Notes: generated from the sequence alone by a model not told the origin. A stretch of DNA of 64,000 nucleotides from Candidatus Collierbacteria bacterium (GCA_016183365.1 JACPES010000003.1:13726-77725); one strand, 5' to 3'. Counted from the stretch's first letter, positions 3,993-50,900 are shown. Numbers and translations: made by a program.

Positions 3993-4277
3993 ATGGTTAT
4001 TATTGAAAGTGGTATCATAAAGCTCATGAAAACTTATTCCTTTAGAACAATTATCGAACCGGATGATCCGTCGGGATATCATGGTTACGTTCCCAAGTTG
4101 AAAGGTGTTCATACCTGCGGAGAAACAATCGATGAAGTTCAACGAAATCTACGCCAGGCCATTAAATGTCATATTGAAGGACTGATGAAAGACGGTGAAC
4201 CAATGCCGACTGAAGAACGTTCAATCGAATCAATTCAAACTTTCTCTCGGCAGGATTTCACTCCAGTTTATGCCTAA
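3993..4277 (+). CDS. hicB: HicB-family antitoxin (UPF0150)
   Basis: The segment YSFRTIIEPDDPSGYHGYVPKLKGVHTCGETIDEVQRNLRQAIKCHIE is a typical HicB RNase-H-like fold signature. Its stop overlaps the ATG of a hicA-like ORF (ATGCCTAA). Confidence 0.8.
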   Translation: MVIIESGIIKLMKTYSFRTIIEPDDPSGYHGYVPKLKGVHTCGETIDEVQRNLRQAIKCHIEGLMKDGEPMPTEERSIESIQTFSRQDFTPVYA

Positions 4278-4496
4278 GTTGCCGGTTGTCAAGGCAAAAG
4301 TTTTGCTGAAAACCCTGCTTAAACTGGGATTTGAGAAGCACCATCAAGCAGGAACCATATCCAGCTGAAACACCCTGATGGGAGAAGGACGACGGTTCCA
4401 TATCATCCGTCCAAAGAAATCAGAAAAGGCACGCTTCGAGGCATTATCAGTGATATCGATTTGACGGTAGAGGAATTCATCCGAGCGCTAAAGTAA
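4270..4496 (+). pseudogene. hicA: HicA toxin disrupted by a frameshift
   Basis: Frame 0 reads MPKLPVVKAKVLLKTLLKLGFEKHHQAG and hits TGA at 4366. The +2 frame continues SRNHIQLKHPDGRRTTVPYHPSKEIRKGTLRGIISDIDLTVEEFIRALK to 4496. Together they form a complete HicA (GSH..HPDG...GTL) split around 4345. Confidence 0.65.
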
Positions 4497-4573
4497 AAAT
4501 CTGCTGGCAAACAAGGTGAAGTGTTAACCCCAAAAAACTTCCCCGGTGAAAGTCTGGTAAAATCGTAGAAGTT

Positions 4574-5371
4574 GTGAAATTTTTTCTGTGTCCCCTTAAT
4601 TTCAAAGTGAAACGCTTATTCAACTTTCAGAGATTAAAACAGTTGTTGGGCATTATGCTTATCTTGTTGGCTATTGTTTTTAGTCAGACTGTTTTAGTAG
4701 AAAAATTTGGTTTCAGTAACGTCGTTTACGCTCAAGTGCAATGCTGTACCTCACCGGCTCAAGTAACATTTGTTGGCGGAAATGTTTATTGTTCACTTCA
4801 TACCGGAACCGGCATTCCGACAAATTGCTCTGGATCAACCCCTAACTGTGATGTTGAAACTAACCAGTGTATTCCTATTCCCGACATTACTAATCCGCAA
4901 TGCTGTACCTCACCGGCTCAAGTAACATTTGTTGGCGGAAATGTTTATTGTTCACTTCATACCGGAACCGGCATTCCGACAAATTGCTCTGGGAACTGCG
5001 ACGTTCTAACTAACCGATGCATCAATTCTCTCCCCGGCGGCGGGCCGACGATCACCGTCTACGATCCGACGTGCAATTCTGGAACTGGATATTACGGTTA
5101 TTCCGGTGTTAAAAGTGCCTTGGGGTGTTTGCCGACTGATCCGCAAACGTTTATTAATACCGCCACCCCTTGGGCGGTGGGGATTGGAGCCGGAATTGCT
5201 TTTCTACTGGGGCTTTATGGAGCGCTGATGATTGTTATTTCCGCCGGCGACCCGGAAAAAATGCAGGCTGGCAAAGAAATTATTACCAGCGCGATTGCCG
5301 GACTATTATTAATAGTTTTTGCGGTTTTTATTTTAAGAATAATTGGGGTTGATGTATTAAAATTGTTTTAG
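4574..5371 (+). CDS. Secreted protein: duplicated Cys-rich module fused to a VirB2/TrbC-like pilin domain
   Basis: The signal peptide probably starts at MLILLAIVF. Two copies of QCCTSPAQVTFVGGNVYCSLHTGTGIPTNCSG are encoded by a 95-nt exact DNA repeat (4739-4833 and 4898-4992). The C-terminal pilin-like segment is TATPWAVGIGAGIAFLLGLYGALMIVISAGDPEKMQAGKEIITSAIAGLLLIVFAVFIL. Confidence 0.55.
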   Translation: MKFFLCPLNFKVKRLFNFQRLKQLLGIMLILLAIVFSQTVLVEKFGFSNVVYAQVQCCTSPAQVTFVGGNVYCSLHTGTGIPTNCSGSTPNCDVETNQCIPIPDITNPQCCTSPAQVTFVGGNVYCSLHTGTGIPTNCSGNCDVLTNRCINSLPGGGPTITVYDPTCNSGTGYYGYSGVKSALGCLPTDPQTFINTATPWAVGIGAGIAFLLGLYGALMIVISAGDPEKMQAGKEIITSAIAGLLLIVFAVFILRIIGVDVLKLF

Positions 5372-5388
5372 TCAAGAGTCATTAAATT

Positions 5389-5721
5389 ATGTTTATATCA
5401 CTAAGCGTGCTAGGTGTAGCTTTACCCGGAGGGGAAAGAGACCTTTTTTGGAGCGATCCGCTAGCGGGAAGGGGGAAGTTTGATGACATTGGAACGACTA
5501 TTACTTCTCTTCTCCCCTACCTTTTCATCATCGGCGGAATCGTGACGGGCGGAATGCTGATAATCGGCGGATTCGACATTTTAACTTCCATGGGCAGCGA
5601 AGAAAAACTAAAAAGCGGAGCGGAGAGAATCAAAAACGCCTTAATAGGGTTTTTATTGTTGTTCGCGGTTTATTGGCTGGCCCAAATCGCTCAAGTCCTT
5701 TTTAAAATACCTATTTTATAG
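5389..5721 (+). CDS. VirB2/TrbC-like pilin paralog 2
   Basis: Two hydrophobic helices separated by a GG..SMGSEEKLKSGAERIKNALIG loop, the same pattern as the other seven paralogs. Confidence 0.5.
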   Translation: MFISLSVLGVALPGGERDLFWSDPLAGRGKFDDIGTTITSLLPYLFIIGGIVTGGMLIIGGFDILTSMGSEEKLKSGAERIKNALIGFLLLFAVYWLAQIAQVLFKIPIL

Positions 5722-5761
5722 GGCCAAGGGACAAAGGCTAAGGGCTAAAGGCAGACAAAAA

Positions 5762-6121
5762 ATGCAAACAAAAAACAACCAGAGAACTGATTTACATGAA
5801 AGAATTTTTCGTTGGATAATTTCAGTTCTTAAACTATTAAAGACTGTCAATAAAGATGTCATCAGCATAGTAATAATTCAACAGTTGGCAAAATCATGTA
5901 CTTCTGTCGGAGCAAATGACCAGGAAGCAGTTACTTCTTCTAGCGACAAAGACTTTGTTTCTAAATATCAAATTGTAAAAAAGGAGCTTTCCGAAAGTAT
6001 TTATTGGCTAAGAATACTTAAAGAGATGTATCCTGACATTGACATTTCAAGCCAGTTAAACGAAAGCATTGAACTTCTTAGAATCATTAGTAAAATCATT
6101 CTCAACGTCAAGAATCGTTAA
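5762..6121 (+). CDS. Four-helix-bundle protein (23S rRNA intervening-sequence protein family)
   Basis: Signature SCTSVGANDQEAV.SSS.KDF..K..IVKKELSESIYWLRIL. The gene is flanked by the inverted repeats GGCTAAGGGCTAAAGG (5739-5754) and CCTTAGCCCTTAGCC (6173-6190). Confidence 0.6.
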   Translation: MQTKNNQRTDLHERIFRWIISVLKLLKTVNKDVISIVIIQQLAKSCTSVGANDQEAVTSSSDKDFVSKYQIVKKELSESIYWLRILKEMYPDIDISSQLNESIELLRIISKIILNVKNR

Positions 6122-6123
6122 GT

Positions 6124-6900
6124 TTGGTAAAATCTTTTCTAGAAATGAAAAAATCGTTTTCCCTTAGCCCTCATCCCTTAGCCCTTAGCCCTTTTCTCCC
6201 CCGGCACATCGCCATCATCATGGACGGCAACCGGAGATGGGCTAAAGCCCGCGGCCTGGCCGCCGTTATGGGCCATGACAAGGCGGCCCGCGACGTCATT
6301 GAGCCGATTGTTGATAGGGCGATCCAATTGGGAATAAAGTTTTTAACCTTTTGGGCTTTTTCCACCGAAAACTGGAAACGGGATAAAGCCGAAATCAGAG
6401 CATTAATGGGGATTTTCCGGGAAGGATTAGATAAATTGGGCGGTAAACTCAACGAAAAAGGCGTTCGTTTGAACGTCATTGGTGAAATGGAAAAATTCCC
6501 TGCAGATATCCAAGAAAAAACCAAGAAGTATATGGAGCTAAGCCGTGACAATATCCAAATCTCCGTCAGCTTCGCCCTGAACTATGGAGGAAGAGACGAA
6601 ATCCTGCGAGCCGTAAGACGGCTCTTCGAAAAAATTCGAAATTCGAAATTCGAAATTCGAAATTTAAACGAAGAAATGTTTGCGAAATTTCTTGACACCG
6701 CGGATATGCCGGACCCGGATTTGATCATTAGAACCGGCGGCGATCTGCGGTTATCCGGCTATTTTCCCTGGCAATCGGTATACTCGGAGTTATATTTCAC
6801 CAAAACCCTGTGGCCGGATTTCACCCCGAAGGAACTGGATAAAGCATTGGAAGATTACGAAAAACGAGAACGGCGATTCGGTGGCGGAGGGAGAAAATAA
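6124..6900 (+). CDS. uppS: Undecaprenyl diphosphate synthase
   Basis: Motif HIAIIMDGNRRWAKARGL and the usual UPP synthase core are present. The likely start is the ATG at 6145. The N-terminal extension is encoded by the CCCTTAGCC repeat, and an in-frame GAAATTC x4 repeat encodes KIRNSKFEIRNL. Confidence 0.85.
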   Translation: MVKSFLEMKKSFSLSPHPLALSPFLPRHIAIIMDGNRRWAKARGLAAVMGHDKAARDVIEPIVDRAIQLGIKFLTFWAFSTENWKRDKAEIRALMGIFREGLDKLGGKLNEKGVRLNVIGEMEKFPADIQEKTKKYMELSRDNIQISVSFALNYGGRDEILRAVRRLFEKIRNSKFEIRNLNEEMFAKFLDTADMPDPDLIIRTGGDLRLSGYFPWQSVYSELYFTKTLWPDFTPKELDKALEDYEKRERRFGGGGRK

Positions 6901-6902
6901 AA

Positions 6903-6985
6903 AAAATTGCTAAATTGTTATATTGTTAAATTGGAATACGCACCAATTAGTCCTGCAAAGCAGGATCTGGCTCTGCCAGACAATC
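6903..6985. repeat. About 80-nt hairpin repeat element, copy 1
   Basis: ATTGCTAAATTGTTATATTGTTAAATTGGAATACGCACCAATTAGTCCTGCAAAGCAGGATCTGGCTCTGCCAGACAATCCAGCAAT, containing a TCCTGC...GCAGGA stem-loop, followed by a CAATCTA heptamer array. Confidence 0.5.
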
Positions 6986-7030
6986 CAGCAATCCAACAAT
7001 CTAGCAATCTAGCAATCTGACAATCTAACA
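6981..7030. repeat. CAATCYA heptamer array running into the start codon of pilin gene 3
   Basis: CAATCCAGCAATCCAACAATCTAGCAATCTAGCAATCTGACAATCTAACAATG. Confidence 0.65.
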
Positions 7031-7360
7031 ATGTATTTATTCACAGTCAACATCGGCCAAGATTTAAAACTCCAGGACGATACTCCAATTGGCGACGTCA
7101 TCCAATTCCAAAGCGTCGGAGCCTTGATTTCCGCCTGGCTGCCAAATATTTATATTTTAGGCGGGATTATCGTCTTGATTCTAATCATTGTTTCCGGGTT
7201 TATGTGGATTACCAATGCCGGAAATATTAAAAAAATTGAAGAGTCTCAAAAGATCCTGACCTTTGCTATAATGGGTTTTATATTTTTGTTCGGGAGTTAT
7301 TGGATTATTCAAATAATTCAAGTCCTGACGGGAATACCGATATTGAATTCAAGTTTATGA
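7031..7360 (+). CDS. VirB2/TrbC-like pilin paralog 3
   Basis: Hydrophobic helix (ISAWLPNIYILGGIIVLILIIVSG), then FMWITNAGNIKKIEESQKILTFAIMGFIFLFGSYW. Confidence 0.5.
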   Translation: MYLFTVNIGQDLKLQDDTPIGDVIQFQSVGALISAWLPNIYILGGIIVLILIIVSGFMWITNAGNIKKIEESQKILTFAIMGFIFLFGSYWIIQIIQVLTGIPILNSSL

Positions 7361-7830
7361 AAATACTGAATGAAAAATACCGAATACTGAATAAAAAAAA
7401 GGGCGCATCTGACTTCCCTTATTCAGTATTCAGTATTCAGAATTCAGCATTCGTTTCTCTTGGCATCTTTGGCACCATTAAAAATCCTCTCGGCGATACT
7501 TTTGATAAAGCCGGAGGATACGCATCGGTTGAGGGCGGATTGGGGTTATTACTCACCAATCTCATCCGCTTAACTACCGTCGGCGCCGGCATTTGGTTTT
7601 TGGTCAATTTGATTACTGCCGGGGTGATGTATATCGGCTCCAACGGCGAAACCGAAAAAATCACTATAGCTTGGGCTAAAATTTGGCAATCGTTGATCGG
7701 CCTTTTGATAATCGTTAGTTCTTTGACCCTGGCAGCTATTATCAGTAAAGTATTTTTCGGTAGCTACTCCACCATTCTTAATCCGGTAATCTATGGTCCG
7801 GGCAATGCCGGAGGAGGAAAAATTCCATGA
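7357..7830 (+). CDS. VirB2/TrbC-like pilin paralog 4
   Basis: Starts at the ATG at 7357 (the ORF-track start at 7300 overlaps the previous gene). Core is GAGIWFLVNLITAGVMYIGSNGETEKITIAWAKIWQSLIGLLIIV. A TATTCAG heptamer repeat sits in the N-terminal region. Confidence 0.45.
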   Translation: MKILNEKYRILNKKKGASDFPYSVFSIQNSAFVSLGIFGTIKNPLGDTFDKAGGYASVEGGLGLLLTNLIRLTTVGAGIWFLVNLITAGVMYIGSNGETEKITIAWAKIWQSLIGLLIIVSSLTLAAIISKVFFGSYSTILNPVIYGPGNAGGGKIP

Positions 7831-8219
7831 CATTGACAGACATTAAGGCCGGCAATATTGGCGGTTTGCCTGACGGCTACCAGGCTATGCCGGCCTCCGA
7901 CGCTCCGGCCACTTTGGAAAAAATAATTTCCAACACAGTCGGATTTTTTACCGTGGTTGGAGGCTTGACATTTATCATTTATATCGTTTTAGCCGGCTTA
8001 ACCTGGATTACTGCCCGGGAAGAAGATGCCAGACTATCAAAAGCCAAACAAATGCTCACCAACGCCCTGATCGGGCTGGCCCTGATAGTTGTTTCTTGGG
8101 CCGTGGCCGGAATAATCGGGACTATTTTTGGATTTGACATTTTAAACCCGGGAAAATATATTGAAATGATATCGCCTGGCGGGAGCGGCGGCGATGAACG
8201 AGAAAAAAGATCATCATGA
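7827..8219 (+). CDS. VirB2/TrbC-like pilin paralog 5
   Basis: FFTVVGGLTFIIYIVLAGLTWITAREEDARLSKAKQMLTNALIGLALIVVSWAVAGII. It overlaps its neighbours by 4 nt, consistent with an operon. Confidence 0.5.
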   Translation: MTLTDIKAGNIGGLPDGYQAMPASDAPATLEKIISNTVGFFTVVGGLTFIIYIVLAGLTWITAREEDARLSKAKQMLTNALIGLALIVVSWAVAGIIGTIFGFDILNPGKYIEMISPGGSGGDEREKRSS

Positions 8220-8617
8220 AACGAATCTTTTATTTATCTATTTGCCTATTTGTCTATTTGTCTATTCTGTCTGCCTCTGCCTATGCCGCCGGCATCACCA
8301 ATCCGGCTCTTGCGGACGATCTGGGGAGGGGGGATCCGGCGAATGTTTTTGGCCGGTTCGTGGGAAGCTGGTGGGGATTGGCGTATGTCATCGGCGGATT
8401 GCTGTTTTTGCTTTACCTGGTGTGGGGCGGAGTGGAATGGATCATGGGCGGTGGCAATAAAGACCGGATCGAAAGCGCCAAAAATAAAATTTCCAACGGT
8501 ATTTTAGGGCTGACCCTGCTGGCTGCGTCGTTCGCGTTGGTAAAGGCAATTGGATTTGTGTTGGGAATTGATTTATTGGAAACTTTGACTTTTGATTTAT
8601 CCAGACTGGCGCCGTAA
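8216..8617 (+). CDS. VirB2/TrbC-like pilin paralog 6
   Basis: Signal peptide MKRIFYLSICLFVYLSILSASAYA. Core is WWGLAYVIGGLLFLLYLVWGGVEWIMGGGNKDRIESAKNKISNGILGLTLLAASFALV. The signal peptide is partly encoded by a TCTATTTG repeat. Confidence 0.5.
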   Translation: MKRIFYLSICLFVYLSILSASAYAAGITNPALADDLGRGDPANVFGRFVGSWWGLAYVIGGLLFLLYLVWGGVEWIMGGGNKDRIESAKNKISNGILGLTLLAASFALVKAIGFVLGIDLLETLTFDLSRLAP

Positions 8618-8669
8618 TCAATGTTTTGGTAAACTAACTGGAATGTGTTTGAAAAGGAGGTGAGAAATT

Positions 8670-9026
8670 ATGTCATTATTATCAACAGTGTTTGCGGCAG
8701 GAAGCGGAGATATTAATATCGGCCCCAAAGCAACGGCGGCCGGAGTGGACAAAGTAGGCACTATCGGTGATTTAATTGGCGCGGCCATTGGCTCGGCATT
8801 CTTAATCGCCTTCCTGCTGGTATTCGTAATGCTGGTTTTTGGCGGCGTCCAATGGATTACTTCCGGCGGAGACAAAGAAAATACCCAAAAAGCCAAAGAC
8901 CGGATAACTTCCGCTTTGGTGGGAATAGCGATCATCGGCGGAGCTTGGGCTTTAATGAGAGTTGTAGAATTTTTCTTCAACATCGATATCTTGGGTGGAT
9001 TCAAATTGCCGTCGGCGGCGCAATAA
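8670..9026 (+). CDS. VirB2/TrbC-like pilin paralog 7
   Basis: Preceded by an AAGGAGGTGAG ribosome-binding site. Core is GAAIGSAFLIAFLLVFVMLVFGGVQWITSGGDKENTQKAKDRITSALVGIAIIGGAWALM. Confidence 0.5.
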   Translation: MSLLSTVFAAGSGDINIGPKATAAGVDKVGTIGDLIGAAIGSAFLIAFLLVFVMLVFGGVQWITSGGDKENTQKAKDRITSALVGIAIIGGAWALMRVVEFFFNIDILGGFKLPSAAQ

Positions 9027-9043
9027 ACGCGATCCGAATAAGA

Positions 9044-9178
9044 TGATGTCTTGAAGGTGGAAGATGGAAGTCCTTGATCTTGAAACCTTGACGAATCACC
9101 ATCGAGGATTCAAGGTAGCAATCACATCAAGTTCAAAAACCTCAAGAGCATCCATCTTCAAAACATCTATTTCGTGGA
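9044..9178 (+). repeat. About 140-nt palindromic intergenic element, copy A (between pilin genes 7 and 8)
   Basis: Starts GATGTCTTGAAG...CTTGATCTTGAA.CCTTGAC and ends ...ATCAAGTTCAA.AA...CAAGAGCATCCATCTTCAAAACATC. The two ends are inverted repeats of each other. Confidence 0.6.
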
Positions 9179-9211
9179 TTAGTATCGCTTTTCTCTGCTA
9201 TACTTTCAGAT

Positions 9212-9547
9212 ATGAGAGTGTGGGCAGTCGGATTAGTCACCAATGATGCTCCGAATTCTTTGGCCGATATTGAAACGGTAATTAAGAATTTATTGGGATC
9301 GGCTGCCAGCCTGATTGGGTTGGCTATTTTTGTGATGCTGGTGGTCGGAGCCTTTCAATACATTACTTCCGGAGCGGACCAAAAAGCTGTGGAAAAATCC
9401 CGACAAGTATTCACTTTTGCCTTGATGGGCGGAGCCGCGATCATAATTTTATGGCTGGTATTTGTTTTCCTGAAAGAATTCACCGGCATTGACTTACTGA
9501 AGTTTAATATTTGTATATTTCAAGATGAATTCTGCAAATTGCCGTGA
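9212..9547 (+). CDS. VirB2/TrbC-like pilin paralog 8
   Basis: ASLIGLAIFVMLVVGAFQYITSGADQKAVEKSRQVFTFALMGGAAIIILWLVFVF. Confidence 0.45.
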   Translation: MRVWAVGLVTNDAPNSLADIETVIKNLLGSAASLIGLAIFVMLVVGAFQYITSGADQKAVEKSRQVFTFALMGGAAIIILWLVFVFLKEFTGIDLLKFNICIFQDEFCKLP

Positions 9548-12408: not shown

Positions 12409-12411
12409 TAA

Positions 12412-13992: not shown

Positions 13993-14047
13993 ATTAACTC
14001 ATCCCCCTCCACGACACCAGCAAACGATTTTTTATTCTCGTTTTGTA

Positions 14048-19503: not shown

Positions 19504-19731
19504 TTATTTCTTCAATCGCAGAAAATCCTCCACCGTCAATCTTGCTCTCTTAATTTGAGATCTAAGCAATCCCGGGGCTAATTCTTTATGATCTGGAATC
19601 GATAAAATCGGAAAACCCGGAGTCGGATGTTCTAAAATGATGTGACTCCCTGCCTGGCGCGCTCGACAATAACCTACTTTCTCAAAACGTTTGACCGCTT
19701 CTCTGCCGGAAATATTGCTTAATTGACCCAT
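19504..19731 (-). CDS. hicA: HicA-family toxin, intact
   Basis: QAGSHIILEHPTPGFPILSIPDHKELAPGLLRSQIKRARLTVEDF matches the HicA/YcfA family. Its start lies 4 nt after the hicB stop. Confidence 0.8.
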   Translation of the reverse strand: MGQLSNISGREAVKRFEKVGYCRARQAGSHIILEHPTPGFPILSIPDHKELAPGLLRSQIKRARLTVEDFLRLKK

Positions 19732-19734: not shown

Positions 19735-19962
19735 TCAAATGGCGACTTGAATTCTGGTAAAACCGAGGTCTCCCACCGGAAACGTTTTTTCTGATTTTTT
19801 CTCCAGAACCTTCATGTAACCGTTAACCGCCTCTTTAATATTCTTAATCGCCTCCCGCTTGGTTTTCCCTTGAGACATGCAGCCGGGAAGACTGGGTATA
19901 TCAATTACGTATCCACCATATTCCAAATCATATTCAATATAAGCCTGAAATGATTTTTTCAT
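19735..19962 (-). CDS. hicB: HicB-family antitoxin
   Basis: YVIDIPSLPGCMSQGKTKREAIKNIKEAVNGYM is a UPF0150/HicB signature. Confidence 0.8.
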   Translation of the reverse strand: MKKSFQAYIEYDLEYGGYVIDIPSLPGCMSQGKTKREAIKNIKEAVNGYMKVLEKKSEKTFPVGDLGFTRIQVAI

Positions 19963-20998: not shown

Positions 20999-21540
20999 CC
21001 GGTTAATTTAACTCCTGACTGTTTCTCAAGTTTCTCGATAGAAATCTTATAAATTCCCCTGTTCATTCGATAAATCTCTCGTCCTAAATGTCCGTGCATG
21101 TAAACCACAATTACTTGCTTCTGTTTACCAATCAGCAGTTTATACAACGGCTCAAAGTCCCCATCTCCGGTAAAGAAAATAAATCCCTCAACCCCGTCTG
21201 CTAAATCCTTATGAACGTCAATACACGTCTCCATGTCAAAATCGCACTTGCGAAATTTGAATTTCCTTTTGGTAGTTTCGTCAAAAACCGTAATATATTT
21301 CACCGGTTTCGTCGTCACTTGAAAACTAATATTTTTCGCTTGGCGGATAAACGCTTTTGACTTCGGATGTTTATCTGTGCCAAAATAGAGATTAATTTTC
21401 CCGATTTGGGAATAAGTTTTCAAGTGAGCAAACAGCTTTTCCGGATCAACTTCCCGTTTTAAAGATTTACTCCACCCGTGGATATTCGCCCAATCAAGAT
21501 AGACAACTCAATTCCCTCGAAGTTTTAAAGCTTTAATCAT
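20995..21540 (-). pseudogene. NYN-domain protein with an in-frame TGA after codon 10
   Basis: Translation gives MIKALKLRGN-TGA-VVYLDWANIHGWSKSLKREVDPEKLFAHLKTYSQIGKINLYFG...GDGDFEPL, an NYN/LabA-type domain. The TGA at 21508-21510 is in frame. The ORF-track call begins only at the internal TTG at 21423. Confidence 0.45.
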
Positions 21541-21631: not shown

Positions 21632-21889
21632 ATGAAGAAAACTGTTAAAGAACTTCAATTCAAGGTCATCATCGAACAAGACGCAGACAGCTGGTATGTG
21701 GCTTCGGTTCCGGAATTGGAGGGTTGCTACACCCAAGGGAAAACCGTCGAACAAGTTAGAGAGAGAATCAAAGAAGTTATCAAGCTGGTTTTAGAAACAG
21801 ATAAAACCGCGGTTAAAGCAAAACTTCAACATCCGATCTCAATACCGAGTTTTCTGGGAATTGAAGACGTCTCCGTTCAATATGCCTAA
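21632..21889 (+). CDS. hicB: HicB-family antitoxin
   Basis: KVIIEQDADSWYVASVPELEGCYTQGKTVEQVRERIKEVIKLVLE. Its stop overlaps the hicA ATG (ATGCCTAA). Confidence 0.75.
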   Translation: MKKTVKELQFKVIIEQDADSWYVASVPELEGCYTQGKTVEQVRERIKEVIKLVLETDKTAVKAKLQHPISIPSFLGIEDVSVQYA

Positions 21890-22105
21890 GCTTAGCCAAT
21901 CAGGGGCAAAGATTTAATTAAAATTTTAGAAAAACAGGGGTTTGTCCAGATTCGCCAACGCGGCAGTCACGCTAGGCTTGTCCATTCAGATGGCAGAAAG
22001 ACTAGCGTACCAATCCATTCTGGAGAAAAAGTCCATCTGGGATTATTGAGGAAAATTCTGCGCGACGCCGGCTTTTCTCCCGAAGAATTCAATCGGCTTC
22101 AATAA
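21882..22105 (+). pseudogene. hicA: HicA toxin disrupted by a frameshift
   Basis: Frame 0 reads MPKLSQSGAKI and stops at 21915. The +2 frame from 21896 reads PIRGKDLIKILEKQGFVQIRQRGSHARLVHSDGRKTSVPIHSGEKVHLGLLRKILRDAGFSPEEFNRLQ, a full HicA. The break is a single-base indel near 21893-21898. Confidence 0.65.
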
Positions 22106-27173: not shown

Positions 27174-27537
27174 TCAAACCTCTCTTTTGTTTGTTTTGCT
27201 CGCCTCATCTGGTCCGCCACTATCCTCCGTCAGAACATAGAAAACCTTCGGCGCAGTCCCTACTTTAATTAAAATTCCAGCAGTAACCAATTTCTTTAGC
27301 TGTCGATGAATGGCAATACTCCCTATCCTTAGAAACTCTACCAAGTCGATGACTCTAGCCCGACTGTTCGCTTGGATAAAAATGTATGGCCGTCCCGCCT
27401 TTAAAAACGATTTGGTGATTTTTGGAATATTCATAAAGCCGGCTCAAGAAAAGCAATTGCAGGTATTCGCGGACCACTGTCGCGTCATTGGTCTTATATT
27501 GGCGGGAAAAAGGTGTTAATTGGGCCAGGGAAATCAT
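27174..27537 (-). pseudogene. AbiEii-like nucleotidyltransferase toxin, frameshifted and truncated
   Basis: One frame gives the N-terminus ...LYEYSKNHQIVFKGGTAIHFYPSEQSG then a stop. A second frame continues SRARVIDLVEF... (RxSxDIDL-like). The total is far shorter than a full AbiEii. It is adjacent to the abiEi-like gene. Confidence 0.4.
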
Positions 27538-28100
27538 ATTGCAAGGTTGGGATACATTTTGGCGTAATTTAGCAACTTTTTCTTATCGATTAAGGACCAG
27601 TCCAATTCATCTTTGGAAAAAGATTTTAAGCCTTTGGAGGCCAAATATGCCTGATCAAGAACGGCTTTTTCCGGGTCAGCGATTAAGAAACCCTCCTGTT
27701 TTTTGTCATAGCCCCAGAATAAATCTTTTTTGAGATGAGAATATGAATATATCTGGTTTTTTAGATTGTATTTAGCGGTTTTTAGAGATGTAACGCTGGT
27801 AACTCCAACCGCAAATTGGGATAAAATGCCGTAGTAGGAAAGAGCTGATTCAAAAGAAATATAAGAAGGCCGGTAATAATAATTGGCAATTAAAAATTGA
27901 TGCGCCGGTTTCTGGGCAAGAATGTAACAATTTTTTCCCATCTTCTCTAGGATGCCGTTTTTCAGCAATTTGGAAATGACAGAAAACGCCGACCTTTCTT
28001 TAGATATTTTTAATATATCAGCCAGTGATTCGCTGGAAAAAACGGTAATCGGAGAAATAAACAGGGTTTGGGTGGCTCGGGCTAAATTATACGTTTCCAT
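27534..28100 (-). CDS. AbiEi-family antitoxin / transcriptional regulator
   Basis: Has the conserved PSYISFESALSYYGILSQ...VTSVTSLKTAKY block typical of AbiEi-type antitoxins. A perfect 9-bp inverted repeat lies in its promoter region. Confidence 0.5.
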   Translation of the reverse strand: METYNLARATQTLFISPITVFSSESLADILKISKERSAFSVISKLLKNGILEKMGKNCYILAQKPAHQFLIANYYYRPSYISFESALSYYGILSQFAVGVTSVTSLKTAKYNLKNQIYSYSHLKKDLFWGYDKKQEGFLIADPEKAVLDQAYLASKGLKSFSKDELDWSLIDKKKLLNYAKMYPNLAI

Positions 28101-39977: not shown

Positions 39978-39980
39978 GAA

Positions 39981-40151: not shown

Positions 40152-40160
40152 AAAGAAGGA

Positions 40161-40240
40161 ATGGCTACAATGGCTACAATGACTACAATGGTTTGATACT
40201 TTTAACCATTTTAACCATTTAACCATTTTAACCATTTAGT
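40161..40240. repeat. Heptamer tandem-repeat arrays (GGCTACAAT x3, then TTTTAACCA x4)
   Basis: Direct tandem repeats seen in the sequence between rpmH and rnpA. The same TTAACCATT motif recurs at 1383-1425 and 48858-48900. Confidence 0.7.
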
Positions 40241-40243
40241 CGT

Positions 40244-40575
40244 TTGCTCCCTAAACGTTTCAGACTCTCCAAACAAGAATTTAAACAGGTAATGGACGAT
40301 GGCCAAATGGCGTCGGGAAGGCTGATGGGGATAATAATAGGGACAAGGGACAAGGGACAAGGGAATTGCCAAAAGCGGGAATTATTGTCAGCAAGAAATT
40401 GTCGAATAAAGCCGTGGTCAGAAATAAATTAAAACGGCGGTTGCGGGCGGCGCTGCAGGCTGTTTTGCCGGAAATTCATTCAGAACCGCACTTGGTAGTA
40501 CTGCCCAATCGTCGCGCCCTCAACACTTCTGTCGGGGAATTGGAATCCGAGCTTCGTTCTATCCTAACAATTTAA
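40244..40575 (+). pseudogene. rnpA: RNase P protein component, reading frame broken at a GGGACAA heptamer repeat
   Basis: Frame 0 reads MLPKRFRLSKQEFKQVM...IIIGTRDKGQGN and stops at 40432. The +2 frame from the TTG at 40366 reads LPKAGIIVSKKLSNKAVVRNKLKRRLRAALQ..., the RnpA core. The junction is the GGGACAA x3.6 repeat at 40340-40365, and removing two units restores one ORF. Confidence 0.6.
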
Positions 40576-40601
40576 CAATTCAGCAATGTACCAATGAAAT
40601 A

Positions 40602-40817: not shown

Positions 40818-40819
40818 AA

Positions 40820-40955
40820 AAATTTCCAATTTACAATTTACAATTTTCAATCAAATCTCAATTAACCAATTTTCAATTTTTAATTAAATGCTTGTGTCAT
40901 TTAAAATTCATTCTTTGAAAATTCATTGTAAATTGAAAATTGAGAATTGAAAATT
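40820..40955. repeat. AT-rich tandem-repeat array (CAATTT/CAATTTA/GAAAATT units) upstream of yidC
   Basis: TCCAATTTACAATTTACAATTTTCAATC...AATTGAAAATTGAGAATTGAAAATTAG. The left and right halves are inverted copies. Confidence 0.6.
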
Positions 40956-43285: not shown

Positions 43286-43308
43286 AAGTAAATGTACAAT
43301 ATCACCAA

Positions 43309-43752: not shown

Positions 43753-43906
43753 TCCCAGTCAATCTATTGAAATTTCAATTGACCAAAATATGACCGAATG
43801 GGTACTTTCGCCAGCGAAAGTACCTACTTTCGTTCCCCAAGTTGACCTGAATAACCAAAAATAACTTGGCACTAATGACATCGCAGTATTTTTTTGGTAA
43901 AGTAAT

Positions 43907-44755: not shown

Positions 44756-44799
44756 AATCTTCATCTAAGCCGCGACTTAAATTTACAAAAAAAATTCTT

Positions 44800-46458
44800 G
44801 TGTTAATAATTCTATTGCCAAGCGTTGTCTTTTTGCCATTGTTGGCATTATTTAGCTTAAAGGTTTTGGCGAATAAAATAATGGAATCAAAGCCTTCAGA
44901 TTCTGGGTTAGGAATGATGGCAGAATTATCACAGGCAGGAATAACTTTAACCAGGGTTTATTCTTCAATTTTGCCGGAAGACATGGGAACATTTTTCAGA
45001 ACGGCTGAAAAAAAATACTCATCCCGACTTTTAATTTATGGTCTAAAAAATCAAACCGAAATGGCTATTAGTCAGGTCATAAACGGGGGATCTGGAACGC
45101 CTGAAGCATTTTCATCAATGGAACAAAAGGCAAATGATTTATTAAAGCAACTAGACCCCGGGGATAGTTCCAGAAAACCAATCGCTTTCGGAAGAGAATT
45201 GTTACCTTTGGCCAAATGGGCAATGGGCTTTGACCGAAAAAAAACATTTTTATTAGTTTTACAAAATTCTATGGAACAAAGGCCAACCGGAGGGTTAATC
45301 GAAGGATTGGGAGTGGCGGTTTTGGAAAAAGGCCGACTGCTGGATTTGACATGGTCTAGACCGGACGATGTTGAGGTAGCTTTAACCGGGACGGAGGACT
45401 CACCCCAGCCGATCAAAACCATGTTGGCAGAATCCAGGTTATTATTCCGCGATGCCAATTGGTCAATCGACGGCCCGAGCGCCGCGGTTCAATTAAAAAA
45501 AATGTATGAAAGGGCTACCGGCCGCGGAGCGGATGGAGTAATATTCTTTTCCACCAAAGGATTTGAAGATATTATTTCTGAAGTTGGAAAAGTGCCAATC
45601 GGGCCTAATCTAGAAATAACCGCCGAAAACTTAAAAGAAAAATCTGCCTTCGCCGGACCGGAATTTACTCTCCAAATCGCCGGAGCGATGTTTGAAACCT
45701 TTAAAGCCGTGCCTTTTCCGGTAATCCAAGGGATTATCAAGGCTTTACAAAACGAGAATATTCTGGTTGTTCCTTTCGCAGCGGATTCGGCCAGACTGGC
45801 GGCCCAACAGGGAATTGACGGCGGGGTAAGAAAACTTTTATGCCCGGCTCAATTATATTCGTCAAAATGTTCCCAAAATTTTATTTATTTAGTTGACGCG
45901 AATTTGGGAGCCAAGAGATCAGATTATTTTCTTAAAAAAGGCCGTCGGGCCTTGGTGACTTTAGCCCCTGATTCTCCGCCGGCTGTAACTTTGGAATTAG
46001 CTTATGCCAATACCTCGACAGTCGGCGGTTCGTCTACGGCTTATCGCGGATATACCCGGGCAGTTATTCCGCTAGAGAGCGTGATTCAGTCTGTTATTGA
46101 GGTGAAAAACGGTCAGGCGGTCCAAATCATGCCAGATAATTATATCGAATTTGGCCAACATATCATTGGTTTTCCTGTTGAAATAATGCCGGGAGAGGCC
46201 TTGTTGATAAAAATAAATTATATTTCGACGAATAAAATTCCAATCGAAAGAGGAATCGGAGCGTACGTCTTGAACCTTAAAAAACAGGCGGGGGATTCCG
46301 TGGAAACCGAAGTCCAGATTAAATTGGGGAATGGCATGACTCCTTTATCGGTTTATCCCCGGGCCGGAATTTCGGATAGCAGCCTGATTTTTAGGCTGAC
46401 TATGGAAAAGTCCGATTCGGCGGCAGTCGAGTTCGCCCTAAACGATTTATTTCGCTAG
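44800..46458 (+). CDS. Secreted/membrane-anchored protein, DUF4012-like
   Basis: N-terminal hydrophobic anchor and an MEQRPTGGLIEGLGVAVLEKG motif resembling E.RxTGG of DUF4012 proteins. Confidence 0.35.
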   Translation: MLIILLPSVVFLPLLALFSLKVLANKIMESKPSDSGLGMMAELSQAGITLTRVYSSILPEDMGTFFRTAEKKYSSRLLIYGLKNQTEMAISQVINGGSGTPEAFSSMEQKANDLLKQLDPGDSSRKPIAFGRELLPLAKWAMGFDRKKTFLLVLQNSMEQRPTGGLIEGLGVAVLEKGRLLDLTWSRPDDVEVALTGTEDSPQPIKTMLAESRLLFRDANWSIDGPSAAVQLKKMYERATGRGADGVIFFSTKGFEDIISEVGKVPIGPNLEITAENLKEKSAFAGPEFTLQIAGAMFETFKAVPFPVIQGIIKALQNENILVVPFAADSARLAAQQGIDGGVRKLLCPAQLYSSKCSQNFIYLVDANLGAKRSDYFLKKGRRALVTLAPDSPPAVTLELAYANTSTVGGSSTAYRGYTRAVIPLESVIQSVIEVKNGQAVQIMPDNYIEFGQHIIGFPVEIMPGEALLIKINYISTNKIPIERGIGAYVLNLKKQAGDSVETEVQIKLGNGMTPLSVYPRAGISDSSLIFRLTMEKSDSAAVEFALNDLFR

Positions 46459-46467
46459 ATCAAGGCG

Positions 46468-46476
46468 TGTTATAAT
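46468..46476 (+). promoter_or_regulatory. Extended -10 element TGTTATAAT upstream of rplY
   Basis: TGnTATAAT motif located 13 nt before the rplY GTG start. Confidence 0.35.
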
Positions 46477-46488
46477 CTTAATCTATTT

Positions 46489-47214
46489 GTGAGTTCTCAA
46501 AAGTTATTATTAACCAGCGCTAAAAGAAAGATAGTCGGCCGCAAAGTAAAGTCTTTAAGAAAGGAAGGTCAGGTTCCCGCTAACGTTTTTGGGAAAAAGA
46601 TTAAATCATTGGCTGTTTCAGTTAAATCTATTGACTTCCGGAAAATTTTCTCAAAGGCGGGAGCCACAGGGATAATTTATTTAGAAGTAACCGGCGAAAA
46701 AGAACTAAGGCCGGTTTTAGTATCAACCATTCAAAAACACCCTCTGAACGGGAGTTTATTGCATATTGATTTCAGGCAGGTGGATTTAGCCGAAAAAGTG
46801 AAGGCCGAAGTTCCGATTAGAATAATCGGGGAGTCTTTGGCCGTTAAAGACAAAAACGGAGTTTTGGTTTTAGTTTTATCGCAGGTAATGGTGGAGGCTT
46901 TGCCGGCCGATTTGCCGGAAAGCTTAGACATTAGTATTCAAAGCTTGGTTGAGATCGGTCAAAGCGTTCATATCAAAGACATTAAGGTCGACAAAGCAAA
47001 GGTTAAAATTGAAGCCGGAGAAGATGAAACAGTGGTTATTATTCAAGAACCCAGAGCGGAAGAAGTTGAAGTGAAACCGGTAGTCGAGGTTGCCGCAATT
47101 GAAGGGGAGGAAGCTGCTAAGACCGAAGGAGAGAAGTTGCCGGCAGATGAAAAAAATCTTCAGCCGGGGACCTCCGCCAAGTCAACCGCCAAGCCTGCCG
47201 ATAAACAAAAATAA
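46489..47214 (+). CDS. rplY: 50S ribosomal protein L25 / general stress protein Ctc
   Basis: KRKIVGRKVKSLRKEGQVPANVFGKKIKSLAVSV is an L25 N-domain, followed by a Ctc-type acidic C-terminal extension. GTG start. Confidence 0.8.
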   Translation: MSSQKLLLTSAKRKIVGRKVKSLRKEGQVPANVFGKKIKSLAVSVKSIDFRKIFSKAGATGIIYLEVTGEKELRPVLVSTIQKHPLNGSLLHIDFRQVDLAEKVKAEVPIRIIGESLAVKDKNGVLVLVLSQVMVEALPADLPESLDISIQSLVEIGQSVHIKDIKVDKAKVKIEAGEDETVVIIQEPRAEEVEVKPVVEVAAIEGEEAAKTEGEKLPADEKNLQPGTSAKSTAKPADKQK

Positions 47215-47657
47215 TGTCCGACTGTATATTTTGTCTGATCGTTTCCGGCCAGATTCCATGCCACAAGGTTTTCGAAAATGAACATTTTTTGGGGTTTCTG
47301 GATATTTCGCCGGTGGTTGAAGGTCATGCTTTGGTCATTCCAAAAAAACACTTCAGGTGGGTTCATGAAGTTGAGGAATTCGGAGAGTTTTGGGAGGCAG
47401 CTCAAAAAGTAGGCCAAGCTCAAATTAATGGATTAAAAGCGGCCACTGTAGTATTTGCCACTGCCGGTTTCCAGGTTCCCCACGCTCATATTCACGTTAT
47501 GCCTTGTCTCGCAGTGGCCCGTAAGGGCGAAGGCGGACCCATGCCGCTGAAACAAAAAGGCGAGTACCTTCCGGGCGTCGAGTCAGCCAAGAGAATTAAT
47601 ATGTCTCCGTCCCAACTTCAAGAAGTGGCCGCCAAACTTCGGAATTCGGTAAAATAA
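47214..47657 (+). CDS. HIT-family (histidine triad) protein
   Basis: CIFCLIVSGQIPCHKVFENEHFLGFLDISPVVEGHALVIPKKH and the HAHIHVMP triad. Confidence 0.8.
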   Translation: MSDCIFCLIVSGQIPCHKVFENEHFLGFLDISPVVEGHALVIPKKHFRWVHEVEEFGEFWEAAQKVGQAQINGLKAATVVFATAGFQVPHAHIHVMPCLAVARKGEGGPMPLKQKGEYLPGVESAKRINMSPSQLQEVAAKLRNSVK

Positions 47658-47675
47658 TCTCCGGAAGATTGCTAA

Positions 47676-47756
47676 ATTGTCCTGCGGAGCAAGATCCTGC
47701 TTTGCAGGACTAAATGCCTCCACAATTTAACAATCTAACAATTTAACAATCTAACA
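47676..47756. repeat. Partial third copy of the hairpin element plus a CAATCTA/CAATTTA heptamer array
   Basis: GATTGCTAAATTGTCCTGCGGAGCAAGATCCTGCTTTGCAGGACTAAATG then CAATTTAACAATCTAACAATTTAACAATCTAACAATG, which runs into the tsaC-tsaE start codon. Confidence 0.4.
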
Positions 47757-48857
47757 ATGAAAATCCTTAACCTGAAAGAAACCTCTAAACATGACGCTAC
47801 CGCTCAATCAGTTAAAATTCTCCGAGCTGAGGGCCTTGTCATCTACCCCACCGAAACCGTTTACGGCGCCGGAGTTGATGCTACCAATCCGGCGGCGGTA
47901 AAAAAACTGGGCGAATATAAATCTAGGCCATTCGGCAAACCTTTTTCAATTGCCGTAGCCGATTGGAAAATGGCGGAAAAATATGTGGTTTTGAATGAAA
48001 CCGCCAAAAAACTTTACCGGCAATTTTTGCCCGGTCCGTTAACAATAATATCTAAACTAAAAACACTTAATTCTTCTAACCCTTCTAACCATTTTCTTTC
48101 TCCCGGCGTCGCCTCTGAAGCCGGAACACTGGGGATTAGGATTTCATCGTATCCGCTGGTTGCGAAAATTGTCAGGTCGTTGGGCAGGCCAATTACCGCC
48201 ACATCCGCCAACGAGGCTTACAAAAAAAGGCCATATCAGATATCAGATATTTTATTTAATATTTCAGACAGGAAGAAACAGCTGATAGATTTAATTATTG
48301 ATGCCGGAGAATTGCCGAGAAATGAACCGTCAACAGTTATAGACACCACTTTGGACGATCAGACAGTTCTGCGTCAGGGAGATATTCAATTAAAAGATAA
48401 AATCCACATTTTGTCCAGGACTCCGGAAAATACTCAAAATCTGGCCAAAGAACTATGGCAAAAATATGAGGGGTTCGTTGGAAAACGAGCGATTATTTTT
48501 GCTCTCGAAGGCCAACTCGGAGCAGGCAAAACCGAATTTACCAAAGGCCTGGCCCGGGCAATGGGGATAAAAAAGGAAATTACCTCGCCAACATTCAATT
48601 TGGTGAATCATTATTCTTTACTCTTTACTCCCTACTCCTTACTCCATATTGACGCTTGGCGTCTTGAATCATCATCAGAACTTGGATCATTGGACTTTTC
48701 TAAAACAATATCCGATAAGTCGGTGATAGCGGTAGAATGGGCCGATCGGGTAACAAACGTCATTCGCCGCTATCAGGAAGAAGCTGTCATCATCTGGGTC
48801 AAAATTAAATACGGAAAGTCCAAAAACGACCGTTTAATCAGCTGGGGAATTTTTTAG
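47757..48857 (+). CDS. Fusion of threonylcarbamoyl-AMP synthase (TsaC/YrdC domain) with the tRNA t6A ATPase TsaE
   Basis: N-half: LVIYPTETVYGAGVDA, SANEAYKKRP, PSTVIDTT (YrdC). C-half: EGQLGAGKTEFTKGLARAMGI, SPTFNLVNHY, HIDAWRL (TsaE). Two heptamer repeats are embedded in frame (LNSSNPSNHF and SLLFTPYSLLH). Confidence 0.7.
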   Translation: MKILNLKETSKHDATAQSVKILRAEGLVIYPTETVYGAGVDATNPAAVKKLGEYKSRPFGKPFSIAVADWKMAEKYVVLNETAKKLYRQFLPGPLTIISKLKTLNSSNPSNHFLSPGVASEAGTLGIRISSYPLVAKIVRSLGRPITATSANEAYKKRPYQISDILFNISDRKKQLIDLIIDAGELPRNEPSTVIDTTLDDQTVLRQGDIQLKDKIHILSRTPENTQNLAKELWQKYEGFVGKRAIIFALEGQLGAGKTEFTKGLARAMGIKKEITSPTFNLVNHYSLLFTPYSLLHIDAWRLESSSELGSLDFSKTISDKSVIAVEWADRVTNVIRRYQEEAVIIWVKIKYGKSKNDRLISWGIF

Positions 48858-48903
48858 CCCTTTAACCATTCTAACCATTTAAATAATTTTAACCATTTAT
48901 CTT

Positions 48904-50004
48904 ATGACAATTCTTTCTATCGACACCAGTTGCGACGAAACAGCTGTCGCGGTTACAGACGGAAACAGGGTTTTAAGCAATATTATCTGGTCCCAGGCCT
49001 TGCTCCATTCTAAATGGGGTGGCGTTGTTCCGTCTCTTGCCAAGCGCGCCCACCAAGAACGTCTTCCTTGGGTTGTCTCCAAAGCGGTTCACGATTCACG
49101 GTTAACGATTAACGAAATTGATGCCATTGCGGCAACGATTGGGCCGGGATTGGCGATTGCGCTGGAGGTGGGAATTGCCAAGGCAAAAGAATTGGCCCTG
49201 AAGTGGCATAAGCCATTAATTCCGGTGAATCACCTCGAGGGCCATATCTTAAGCCCGTTAGCCTGGTCAACAATCAGCAATCAGCAATTAACAATTAACA
49301 ATTTAAACTTTCCCTTCGCGGCCCTCGTAGTTTCCGGCGGTCACACAGAGCTTGTTTTAGTTAAAAAGATAGGCGAATATCAAATTTTAGTCCGAACAAT
49401 AGATGATGCTTTGGGAGAGGCTTTGGATAAAGCCGCCAGGATGTTAGGATTGGGGTATCCGGGAGGCGCGGTGTTGGAAAAATTGGCCAAAACCGGAAAT
49501 CCTTCAACCTATAAACTGCCATTGCCATTATTAGGCCGGGAAAACCAAGGTAAATTCAGTTATTCAGGATTAAAAACCGCTTTTTATCGGTTAACAAACG
49601 AAAAAAGTTTAACGAAGCAAGAAATTTACGATCTAGCCGCCAGTTTTCAAAACACTTCTTTTGAGCATTTGATAAGAATTGTTAAAAAGTCGGTTTTGTC
49701 ATTGCGAGCCACGCTACAGACGGGACGTGGCAATCCAGAAATTACTGATTTTCTAGTCGGCGGCGGCGTCGCCTCCAACATCGAACTTCGCAAAAGGCTG
49801 CGGAATCTTGGAAAAAAATTCGGACTGAAAATTCATTTTCCCTATTCCAAAAAACTCTGTACCGACAATGCCGCCATGATTGGTCTGGCAGGGCAATGGG
49901 CCTTTGCGAGAGGCGAACTGAAACGAACAAAAGAAGAAATAGAATCAATTGACAGAATTCCCGGACTGGATTTTTCTTTAGGCCTACCTCTTTCTCGCGC
50001 ATAA
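48904..50004 (+). CDS. tsaD: tRNA N6-adenosine threonylcarbamoyltransferase TsaD (Kae1/Gcp)
   Basis: ILSIDTSCDETAVAV, HLEGHIL and VSGGHTELV motifs. An in-frame CAATTAA-type repeat encodes STISNQQLTINNLNF. Confidence 0.85.
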   Translation: MTILSIDTSCDETAVAVTDGNRVLSNIIWSQALLHSKWGGVVPSLAKRAHQERLPWVVSKAVHDSRLTINEIDAIAATIGPGLAIALEVGIAKAKELALKWHKPLIPVNHLEGHILSPLAWSTISNQQLTINNLNFPFAALVVSGGHTELVLVKKIGEYQILVRTIDDALGEALDKAARMLGLGYPGGAVLEKLAKTGNPSTYKLPLPLLGRENQGKFSYSGLKTAFYRLTNEKSLTKQEIYDLAASFQNTSFEHLIRIVKKSVLSLRATLQTGRGNPEITDFLVGGGVASNIELRKRLRNLGKKFGLKIHFPYSKKLCTDNAAMIGLAGQWAFARGELKRTKEEIESIDRIPGLDFSLGLPLSRA

Positions 50005-50032
50005 CTCAAGCAAAGTTGACAAGCATGGTATA

Positions 50033-50536
50033 GTGGACGAGAAAATGGATCAACGACAGCGCGAGCAACTTCTTGCCCAAATCCCAACCACAAGTCTCCG
50101 ATCAGAGGCTTTCGAAAAACTTGGAGACGACGCGTCAGTCGCGTTGATGTTTGAGTACCAGTACCAGCTGGAACAGATCCGAGCAAATGCAGAGACGCAA
50201 GTTCCCGTGAGGCGCATCTATGCCCGCGCAGCATTGATCGGCGCGCTTGCTGGGGCAGGTCTTGGGGGCTTGGCATTCCTTTCAGGCAGGGAAGACGTTG
50301 CCAACTCTTCGTTTGAGGCGATCCAAGGCGGAATTGTGTTTCTTGCTGGAGGTGCAGCTTTTGGAGGGATCATGGGTCTAGCTCTTGGTGGTTGCACATC
50401 TGTTGAGCAAGCCAAAAGAATATTTATCCGGCAAGGGGAAAAGTCGGTCCTAGCGGAACACCGGACGTTTCTTGAAAAACGACTTACTGATGATCAGGTA
50501 ACAGATCTGTTTCTCCAAAGTGCCGCAGAAGAATAA
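50033..50536 (+). CDS. Hypothetical membrane protein (167 aa)
   Basis: Two Gly/Ala-rich TM helices (ALIGALAGAGLGGLAFL and GGIVFLAGGAAFGGIMGLALGG). Confidence 0.35.
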   Translation: MDEKMDQRQREQLLAQIPTTSLRSEAFEKLGDDASVALMFEYQYQLEQIRANAETQVPVRRIYARAALIGALAGAGLGGLAFLSGREDVANSSFEAIQGGIVFLAGGAAFGGIMGLALGGCTSVEQAKRIFIRQGEKSVLAEHRTFLEKRLTDDQVTDLFLQSAAEE

Positions 50537-50622
50537 AAATTTTTCCCCTTGACAACATACAACATATAATAAGCGCATGATCAGAACCCAAGGTTTATAT
50601 TCAGGAGGACTTACATAGGGAT

Positions 50623-50832
50623 ATGGCTCTTTTGATGAGACGAGAGAAGATGAATTTTTCTCAACTAATTAGAGAAGGAGTGGAAACGGTAATAAGAAAG
50701 AAAAAGATAAAGAAGAACAAAAAATGGGGAGAGGGATTTATTGGGGCGGTAAAAGGCGGACCCAAGAATTTGTCTTCTAGGATTGATTATTACTTATATG
50801 GAAAGGGTAACCCCAAATGGGCAGGAAAATAG
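50623..50832 (+). CDS. Small basic protein, possible RHH-type antitoxin
   Basis: MNFSQLIREGVETVI resembles RHH antitoxin helices. An AGGAGG ribosome-binding site lies upstream. A PIN-toxin N-terminal fragment follows. Confidence 0.25.
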   Translation: MALLMRREKMNFSQLIREGVETVIRKKKIKKNKKWGEGFIGAVKGGPKNLSSRIDYYLYGKGNPKWAGK

Positions 50833-50900
50833 CCTTGGATTCAAATGTGTTGGTAGCGTTGTATAAGTTTGACGACTCAACCCAATTCTTAATTAGATAA
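50817..50900 (+). pseudogene. Remnant of a PIN-domain (VapC-like) toxin, N-terminal 27 aa only
   Basis: MGRKIALDSNVLVALYKFDDSTQFLIR then a stop. The IALDSNVL block is the canonical start of the first PIN strand. Its ATG overlaps the upstream stop. Confidence 0.35.

Follow-up and report, generated by a model that had tools for sequence, protein, structure and literature searches.

Toxin-antitoxin (TA) systems, including AbiE, have been reported in other genomes of the Candidate Phyla Radiation (CPR) (PMC8080830), and such systems are commonly presumed to be scarce in small genomes (PMC12455944). Here, we analyzed the TA genes in a 64,000-nucleotide stretch of DNA (the window) from Candidatus Collierbacteria bacterium (GCA_016183365.1 JACPES010000003.1:13726-77725). 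The source is a small-genome bacterium from groundwater, represented at NCBI by a metagenome-assembled genome with the locus tags HYU89_, in which the window lies on a 588,265-bp contig. The window carries six TA pairs: three hicBA pairs, one abiE pair, one vapBC pair, and one doc gene with an AbrB-type antitoxin (Table 1). Three of the pairs have lesions in the toxin gene only (hicA1, hicA2, and abiEii), one in both genes (vapBC), none in the antitoxin gene only, and two are intact. An initial annotation, made from the sequence alone, had described toxin genes that decay while their antitoxins stay intact. The preferential disruption of toxins holds, and most of the antitoxin open reading frames (ORFs) are whole, but the ribbon-helix-helix (RHH) antitoxin of the vapBC pair is itself broken.

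Ca. Amesbacteria and other Microgenomates come closest among the GTDB species representatives; with ValRS identities of only 64-66%, none of these is a species-level relative. Therefore, the inactivation events could be compared only with a sister genome, HZB78, and with metagenome contigs. This comparison was made at the assembly level and covers one clonal population and a few relatives. By aligning the genes to intact homologues, as the initial annotation had proposed, we located the lesions against sister genome GCA_016219325.1 (L126) and the relatives L128, L129, and L130. Scans of the window for tRNA genes and Rfam families both came back empty.

Table 1. Toxin-antitoxin genes and associated features in the window, with lesions and profile matches (aa, amino acids; nt, nucleotides).
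Feature	Positions	Strand	Description
hicB1 antitoxin, intact	3993..4277	+	94-aa ORF; Pfam HicB_lk_antitox E = 4.6e-11; identical in 7 Logan contigs
hicA1 toxin pseudogene	4270..4496	+	1-nt deletion between 4354 and 4355, codon 29; premature TGA 4366-4368
hicA3 toxin, intact	19504..19731	-	75 aa; Pfam HicA_toxin 54.9 bits, profile positions 1-57 of 58
hicB3 antitoxin, intact	19735..19962	-	75 aa; Pfam HicB_lk_antitox E = 1.7e-8
NYN (LabA-like) nuclease gene, nonsense codon	20995..21540	-	TGA 21510..21508, codon 11; Pfam NYN (PF01936) 52.5 bits read through
hicB2 antitoxin, intact	21632..21889	+	85 aa; Pfam HicB_lk_antitox E = 6.5e-9
hicA2 toxin pseudogene	21882..22105	+	one T missing between 21895 and 21896, codon 5; premature TAA 21915-21917
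86-aa ORF straddling abiEii breakpoint	27174..27434	-	first ~18 codons = alternative frame of abiEii remnant
abiEii toxin remnant, codons 1-52	27380..27537	-	PADLOC AbiEii profiles match positions 1-52 of ~260
abiEi antitoxin/regulator, intact	27534..28100	-	188 aa; PADLOC AbiEi E = 1.6e-33, profile positions 14-183 of 199
vapB-like RHH antitoxin pseudogene	50577..50832	+	extra G at 50592/50593, codon 6, frame shifted
vapC (PIN) remnant, 27 codons	50817..50900	+	in-frame internal deletion of ~318 nt, junction ~50884
doc toxin (Fic/Doc), intact	53526..53912	-	128 aa; Pfam Fic 68.7 bits; 87% identical to sister orthologue
AbrB/MazE-type antitoxin of doc, intact	53909..54172	-	87 aa; Pfam MazE_antitoxin 28 bits; 86% identical to sister orthologue

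The hicB1/hicA1 and hicB2/hicA2 pairs share one layout, in which the hicA start codon (ATG) lies within the end of hicB (ATGCCTAA). Both hicA genes had been annotated as frameshifted, and each shift could be traced to the loss of a single nucleotide. The deletion in hicA1 falls within the Gly-Ser-His motif bearing the catalytic histidine. Its three-frame translation gives MPKL...HHQAG in frame 0 and continues in the -1 frame as HIQLKHPDGRRTTVPYHP...IRALK, whereas homologues with 65-76% identity read HHQVGSHIQLKHPDGRRTT in a single frame and show HQVGSHIQLKHPDGRRTT across the lesion site. Insertion of one base after position 4354 restores a 75-residue protein that matches the whole Pfam HicA_toxin model with 68 bits. 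The hicA2 gene aligns base-for-base with the intact orthologues of L129 (92% amino acid identity) and L130 (85%), with AGT CCA reduced to AG- CCA in the window, and the repaired protein scores 70.8 bits against the same model. Its partner, hicB2, shares 88-89% identity with the orthologues in L129 and L130, which are full length. The true start of hicB1 may be Met12. The lesions of both hicA genes look recent: they are single one-nucleotide deletions in otherwise well-preserved ORFs, and the repaired proteins score highly. In hicA2, the window lineage has 5 nonsynonymous and 6 synonymous changes of its own, small counts that suggest at most that the gene has not been drifting neutrally for long.

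Only hicA3 presents the HicA domain (PF07927) with its catalytic histidine in one open frame, hicA1 and hicA2 requiring one nucleotide to be restored; once repaired, both outscore the intact hicA3 (68-71 versus 55 bits). The Pfam matches bear out the annotation of the hicBA3 and doc/abrB pairs as intact. All three HicBs score above the cutoff for the HicB fold (PF15919/UPF0150), and their genes lie in the same orientation as hicA, overlapping or abutting it. The window thus shares with the type II HicAB systems a HicA toxin of the double-stranded RNA-binding domain type with the Gly-Ser-His motif and a HicB with a partial RNase-H-like fold, encoded by adjacent, overlapping genes. It differs in the gene order, hicB preceding hicA, in the frameshifts in two of the three hicA genes, and in the size of the HicBs (75-94 residues), whose Pfam matches span the N-terminal half of the model only (profile positions 1-65 of 123) with no C-terminal DNA-binding domain (RHH or helix-turn-helix) detected. 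The HicBs are thus of the short UPF0150 type. Only 30-44% identical to one another, the three HicA/HicB pairs are old paralogues.

Among approximately 82 hicA copies in metagenome loci, a sample biased toward good matches and intact copies, 76 run the full length and only 2 show clear damage. Against this background, two broken hicA genes out of three in one genome are unusual. Damaged or fused HicA relatives were found at P0049, P0051, P0055, L133:319-540, and L136:693-1026. Among them are one copy fused at its C-terminus to a PF04365 sequence, one with a frameshift in its C-terminus, a fusion of HicB to a HicA without its N-terminus, one interrupted by an in-frame stop at codon 19, and one without the first 31 residues.

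For AbiEi, the abiEii fragment, and the vapC stub, Pfam was uninformative or weak, and we used PADLOC profiles and the alignment with sister genomes instead. The PADLOC match of AbiEi covers the expected architecture of an N-terminal winged helix and a C-terminal domain, and homologues of the same 188 residues are 84-87% identical at 100% coverage. As in AbiE type IV TA/abortive infection systems, abiEii lies behind a full AbiEi gene and overlaps it at its start. However, AbiEii here keeps 52 of ~255 residues and lacks the nucleotidyltransferase (PF08843) motif RFSEDLDF together with the subsequent ~200 residues. The relative L128 (85.6% DNA identity) has the same M23-peptidase gene upstream, followed by abiEi and an abiEii gene of 255 codons with the Pfam AbiEii domain. 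This intact AbiEii, with RFSEDLDF at residues 59-66, aligns with the window over residues 1-52 only, and the rest of it has no match anywhere in the window. The initial annotation had assumed both a frameshift and a truncation, of which the truncation stands: because the homology simply stops after codon 52 (position 27380) and nothing else in the window matches, the lesion is a truncation or replacement rather than a frameshift. The 86-residue ORF straddling the breakpoint is weakly winged-helix-like beyond its first ~18 codons (HTH_27 and HTH_24, E ~0.02; PADLOC AbiEi N-terminal profile, E = 0.002). We rejected a continuation of abiEii in another frame into this ORF, as the L128 AbiEii shows no similarity past codon 52 even at E = 10.

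The vapBC pair is the most heavily damaged. At the syntenic site, L126 carries an intact vapB (84 residues) and vapC (133 residues, PIN, PF01850), in the order tsaE, tsaD, 84-residue RHH gene, 133-residue PIN gene, TPR gene, valS, doc, and abrB. The vapC-like gene at 50817 is indeed a 27-residue stub, as annotated; BLAST and alignment breakpoints identify it as residues 1-22 joined to the last 4-5 residues of the sister protein. Its partner had been taken for a full-length antitoxin like hicB1, hicB2, and abiEi, and this is where the claim fails. The vapB homologues comprise 84 residues, begin with MIRTQVYIPDDLH, and start at an ATG equivalent to position 50577 of the window. DNA alignment with L126 reveals a one-nucleotide insertion in the window, and the original frame ends after 13 codons. 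The residual ORF of 69 residues (50623..50832) starts at homologue residue 16 and lacks the ribbon strand of the RHH fold, which is the DNA-binding strand. Some of the 84-residue homologues carry Pfam RHH_3; the repaired window protein reaches 15 bits (E = 0.025), below the 21.6-bit cutoff. In terms of type II VapBC systems, the window therefore has neither an intact PIN toxin nor an RHH antitoxin with an intact N-terminal ribbon strand. An ORF of 167 residues without a family match (50033-50536) lies between tsaD and vapB and has no counterpart at the syntenic site in the sister genome.

In the doc/abrB pair, the HxFx(D/E)GNKR motif of Doc is present as HPFVDGNKRTA, and the two genes overlap by 4 nucleotides with the antitoxin upstream. 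Across positions 50577-54172 of the window and their surroundings in L126, the TA proteins are far more similar to their sister orthologues (Doc 87%, AbrB 86%, RHH 83%) than the flanking housekeeping proteins are (ValRS 54%, TsaD 48%, HIT 43%), which suggests that TA cassettes at syntenic sites were recently exchanged laterally or recombined.

The in-frame TGA of the NYN gene was also found as annotated, as a single stop codon. The 5' end reads ATG ATT AAA GCT TTA AAA CTT CGA GGG AAT TGA GTT GTC TAT CTT GAT, and the stop precedes the invariant Asp within the LxLxG..V.IDWAN block that is conserved at the N-terminus. The peptide ALKLRGN before the stop aligns with the LxLxG part of the block, where homologues have a sense codon at the position of the TGA and DWAN five residues further on. 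Because no in-frame ATG, GTG, or TTG lies between the TGA and the invariant Asp, this is a nonsense-mutated nuclease gene. An alternative genetic code with TGA as a sense codon was rejected: the code is standard, TGA ending 10 of 39 ORFs of at least 150 residues, and the long ORFs are all open under table 11. The lesion thus stands, but the classification of NYN as a toxin does not. There is no adjacent antitoxin, the same-strand neighboring ORFs being without family matches and hicB2 divergent, and without a partner gene, labeling NYN as the toxin of a TA pair is unjustified. Nor is it an established toxin.

The NYN gene and the hicBA3 pair share flanking sequences (19238-19300/20716-20778 and 20048-20080/21559-21591), and their arrangement looks cassette-like. 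The shared upstream flank consists of a 33-nucleotide element and the leader AATTAWGATATGATTAAA, including the start codon, and the shared downstream flank of a promoter-like element of 46-63 nucleotides (TTGACT...GATATA), part of which also precedes the L129 orthologue of hicB2.

The lesions are genuine and not consensus errors of a single assembly. The same population is present in the Logan assemblies of at least 12 individual runs (SRR12113383 to SRR12113433), and each TA lesion is identical in at least 12 separate runs. The fetched contigs overlapping TA loci were all 100% identical to the window except for one substitution in one contig; the lesions of hicA1 and hicA2 and the TGA of NYN were each found identical in 7 runs. 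The initial annotation had named consensus errors as the finding that would overturn it, and the agreement of the per-run assemblies with the window speaks against them. Metagenome-assembled genomes can carry indel errors, and the normally essential rnpA gene is also split in the window. Nevertheless, we regard it as extremely improbable that errors in sequencing or assembly account for the frameshifts and the stop codon and conceal intact toxin genes, given also that the hicA deletions lie outside homopolymers of more than 2 nucleotides (GGAACC and TAGCC), that vapC and abiEii have lost hundreds of bases by deletion or truncation, and that genes of 1200, 954, 790, 741, and 739 codons run through the window without interruption. 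It is also very improbable that the interrupted toxins are expressed at a low level by ribosomal frameshifting, transcriptional slippage, or TGA read-through as a way of throttling the toxin dose. Such expression could be imagined for hicA1, hicA2, and NYN, each having one lesion and an otherwise fully open ORF, and in hicA2 a -1 slip of Lys-tRNA on the CAAAG preceding the frame-0 stop would rejoin the frame. However, neither hicA site contains an X XXY YYZ slippery heptamer, the two lesions are at different positions, that of hicA1 is within the catalytic His motif, and in the orthologues the whole protein is read from one frame. A programmed -1 frameshift at the hicA2 CAAAG was rejected as the main reading, since the orthologues read MPKLSPIRG in one frame and contain CAAAG as well, which therefore did not evolve for this purpose.

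We consider it quite likely that the six pairs are ordinary chromosomal type II and type IV TA cassettes at different stages of a known two-step erosion. A mutation that kills the toxin would be harmless or even beneficial and could become fixed; one that kills the antitoxin would be lethal as long as the toxin works. Because of this constraint, toxin genes would break first, and the antitoxins would drift and be lost later. The order of events would explain the pattern without any new function for the antitoxins. The single one-nucleotide deletions of hicA1 and hicA2 would then represent an early stage and the loss of most of abiEii and vapC a later one, vapB, frameshifted on top of the deletion in vapC, would mark the furthest stage, and hicBA3 and doc/abrB would be unhit. 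The broken genes presumably yield no active toxin. Disruption is concentrated in the toxin genes, affecting 4 of 6, compared with 2 of 62 non-TA genes (Fisher p = 2.6e-4). A survey of Photorhabdus counted 185 toxin-only, 186 both, and 8 antitoxin-only cases (Belot et al., 2026; PMC13617665). With three toxin-only cases, one pair hit in both genes, no antitoxin-only case, and two intact pairs, the tally in the window matches this pattern and thus fits the published two-step erosion.

Several observations weigh against this explanation. The asymmetry between toxins and antitoxins alone (4/6 versus 1/6) is not significant in the small sample of the window (p = 0.24), and p is 0.10 with NYN included among the toxins (5/7 versus 1/6). 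Low-level frameshifting or TGA read-through of the broken genes may occur, and minor intact alleles may exist in the population, the evidence being at the level of assemblies. Two genes outside the TA loci, rnpA and cmk, are damaged too; some general gene decay is therefore ongoing. The rnpA gene (RNase P protein, 40244-40575) is present as two overlapping ORFs, split at a heptamer repeat, (AGGGACA)x3.7, at 40339-40364. Adding one repeat unit gives a 112-residue protein with 68.5 bits against Pfam Ribonuclease_P, and the split could be repeat-number variation or an assembly problem. Exact-protein look-ups with ValRS, YidD, and the two rnpA fragments gave no match, and the contigs fetched via the Jag/KhpB gene end at tandem repeats near 40925. 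Directly after groEL, the cytidylate kinase gene cmk is reduced to a remnant (61862-62330) of two ORFs matching Pfam positions 66-126 and 143-210 of 211, without the P-loop region and positions 127-142.

Given these two damaged genes, the TA lesions could reflect general reductive decay in the genome of an episymbiont with nothing specific to toxins. We find this improbable, as most genes are intact, all of the long ones included, and TA genes are disrupted in 5 of 12 cases versus 2 of 62 for other genes (p = 8.6e-4). The initial annotation had instead invoked retention of the orphaned antitoxins as anti-addiction or regulatory factors. In this reading, hicB1, hicB2, and abiEi would be selectively kept as anti-addiction or immunity factors against related toxins on mobile elements or as regulators, a concept established for ccd (PMC2654758, PMC7354431) and reviewed in PMC7354431. 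Three antitoxin ORFs are indeed intact beside dead toxins, and the conservation of Doc, AbrB, and RHH above that of ValRS and TsaD hints at ongoing lateral traffic of related cassettes, under which anti-addiction would pay. Still, the claim found no support, and selective retention seems rather unlikely to us. The hicA lesions seem recent, so that hicB genes still intact are to be expected from lack of time and need no selective explanation. The lineage-specific changes of hicB2, 6 nonsynonymous versus 8 synonymous, are no different from those of its relatives, although sites this few and a lesion this recent would hardly reveal purifying selection. With pairs as divergent as those described above, cross-neutralization is not obvious. 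The antitoxin of the most heavily damaged pair, vapB, is itself frameshifted, which is the opposite of retention. There is only a slim chance that related TA cassettes circulate laterally among co-resident Collierbacteria and that hicB and abiEi are kept as immunity against re-invading toxins. If true, this would amount to an adaptive anti-addiction repertoire in an ultra-small episymbiont instead of passive decay.

Toxin-first erosion of this kind has been described before, among the earlier examples being the decay of ccdO157 in E. coli (Mine et al., 2009, as cited in PMC2654758) and of hok-sok (PMC2654758). In the ccdO157 and Photorhabdus cases (PMC2654758, PMC13617665), toxins are likewise inactivated through point mutations, small indels, or truncation, and antitoxin ORFs remain; some pairs carry damage in both genes, and lesions confined to the antitoxin are rare or absent. 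The host differs, a CPR/Patescibacteria genome here in contrast to the gammaproteobacteria of these examples. So does the sampling, which is a phylogeny-wide survey there and a sequence-based comparison within the narrower set of genomes defined above here. The anti-addiction antitoxins, exemplified by the Erwinia chrysanthemi ccd acting against the F-plasmid ccd (Saavedra De Bast et al., 2008, as cited in PMC2654758), are, in the cited account, likewise chromosomal and could in principle neutralize incoming homologous toxins. In contrast to that case, no cognate toxin on a mobile element was identified for the window, and one of its antitoxins, vapB, is decaying.

The kind of event is thus already known, and the window offers a tidy example in a new host and not a new phenomenon. 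It opens no new question, because both the pattern and its explanation are established in better-sampled systems. Its value lies in a clean CPR snapshot of toxin-first TA erosion with the exact lesions mapped against intact relatives, in lesions shown to be genuine and not artefacts of metagenome assembly, and in the corrected annotation of about six loci. The conservation of TA cassettes above that of their housekeeping neighbors is the more interesting lead, as it may bear on lateral TA traffic in streamlined genomes.

Dozens of tandem repeats with units of 7-9 nucleotides in 3-6 copies are found throughout the window, such as ACAATCTA, TTTAACCAT, and TTTTGTT, at sites including 6980-7032, 40160-40238, 47722-47758, 48861-48898, and 52226-52257. 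They are located mostly in intergenic spacers, with a few inside ORFs (ValRS and rnpA), and several contigs of the independent assemblies end at or near them (52228, ~40925). A gene resembling a type IV secretion system pilin (4574-5371) contains a perfect 96-nucleotide repeat at 4738-4833 and 4897-4992, spaced by 159 nucleotides. Because contigs from two runs (L095 and L097) hold a single copy, encoding a protein of 185 instead of 265 residues, this duplication is either polymorphic or assembled differently between samples.

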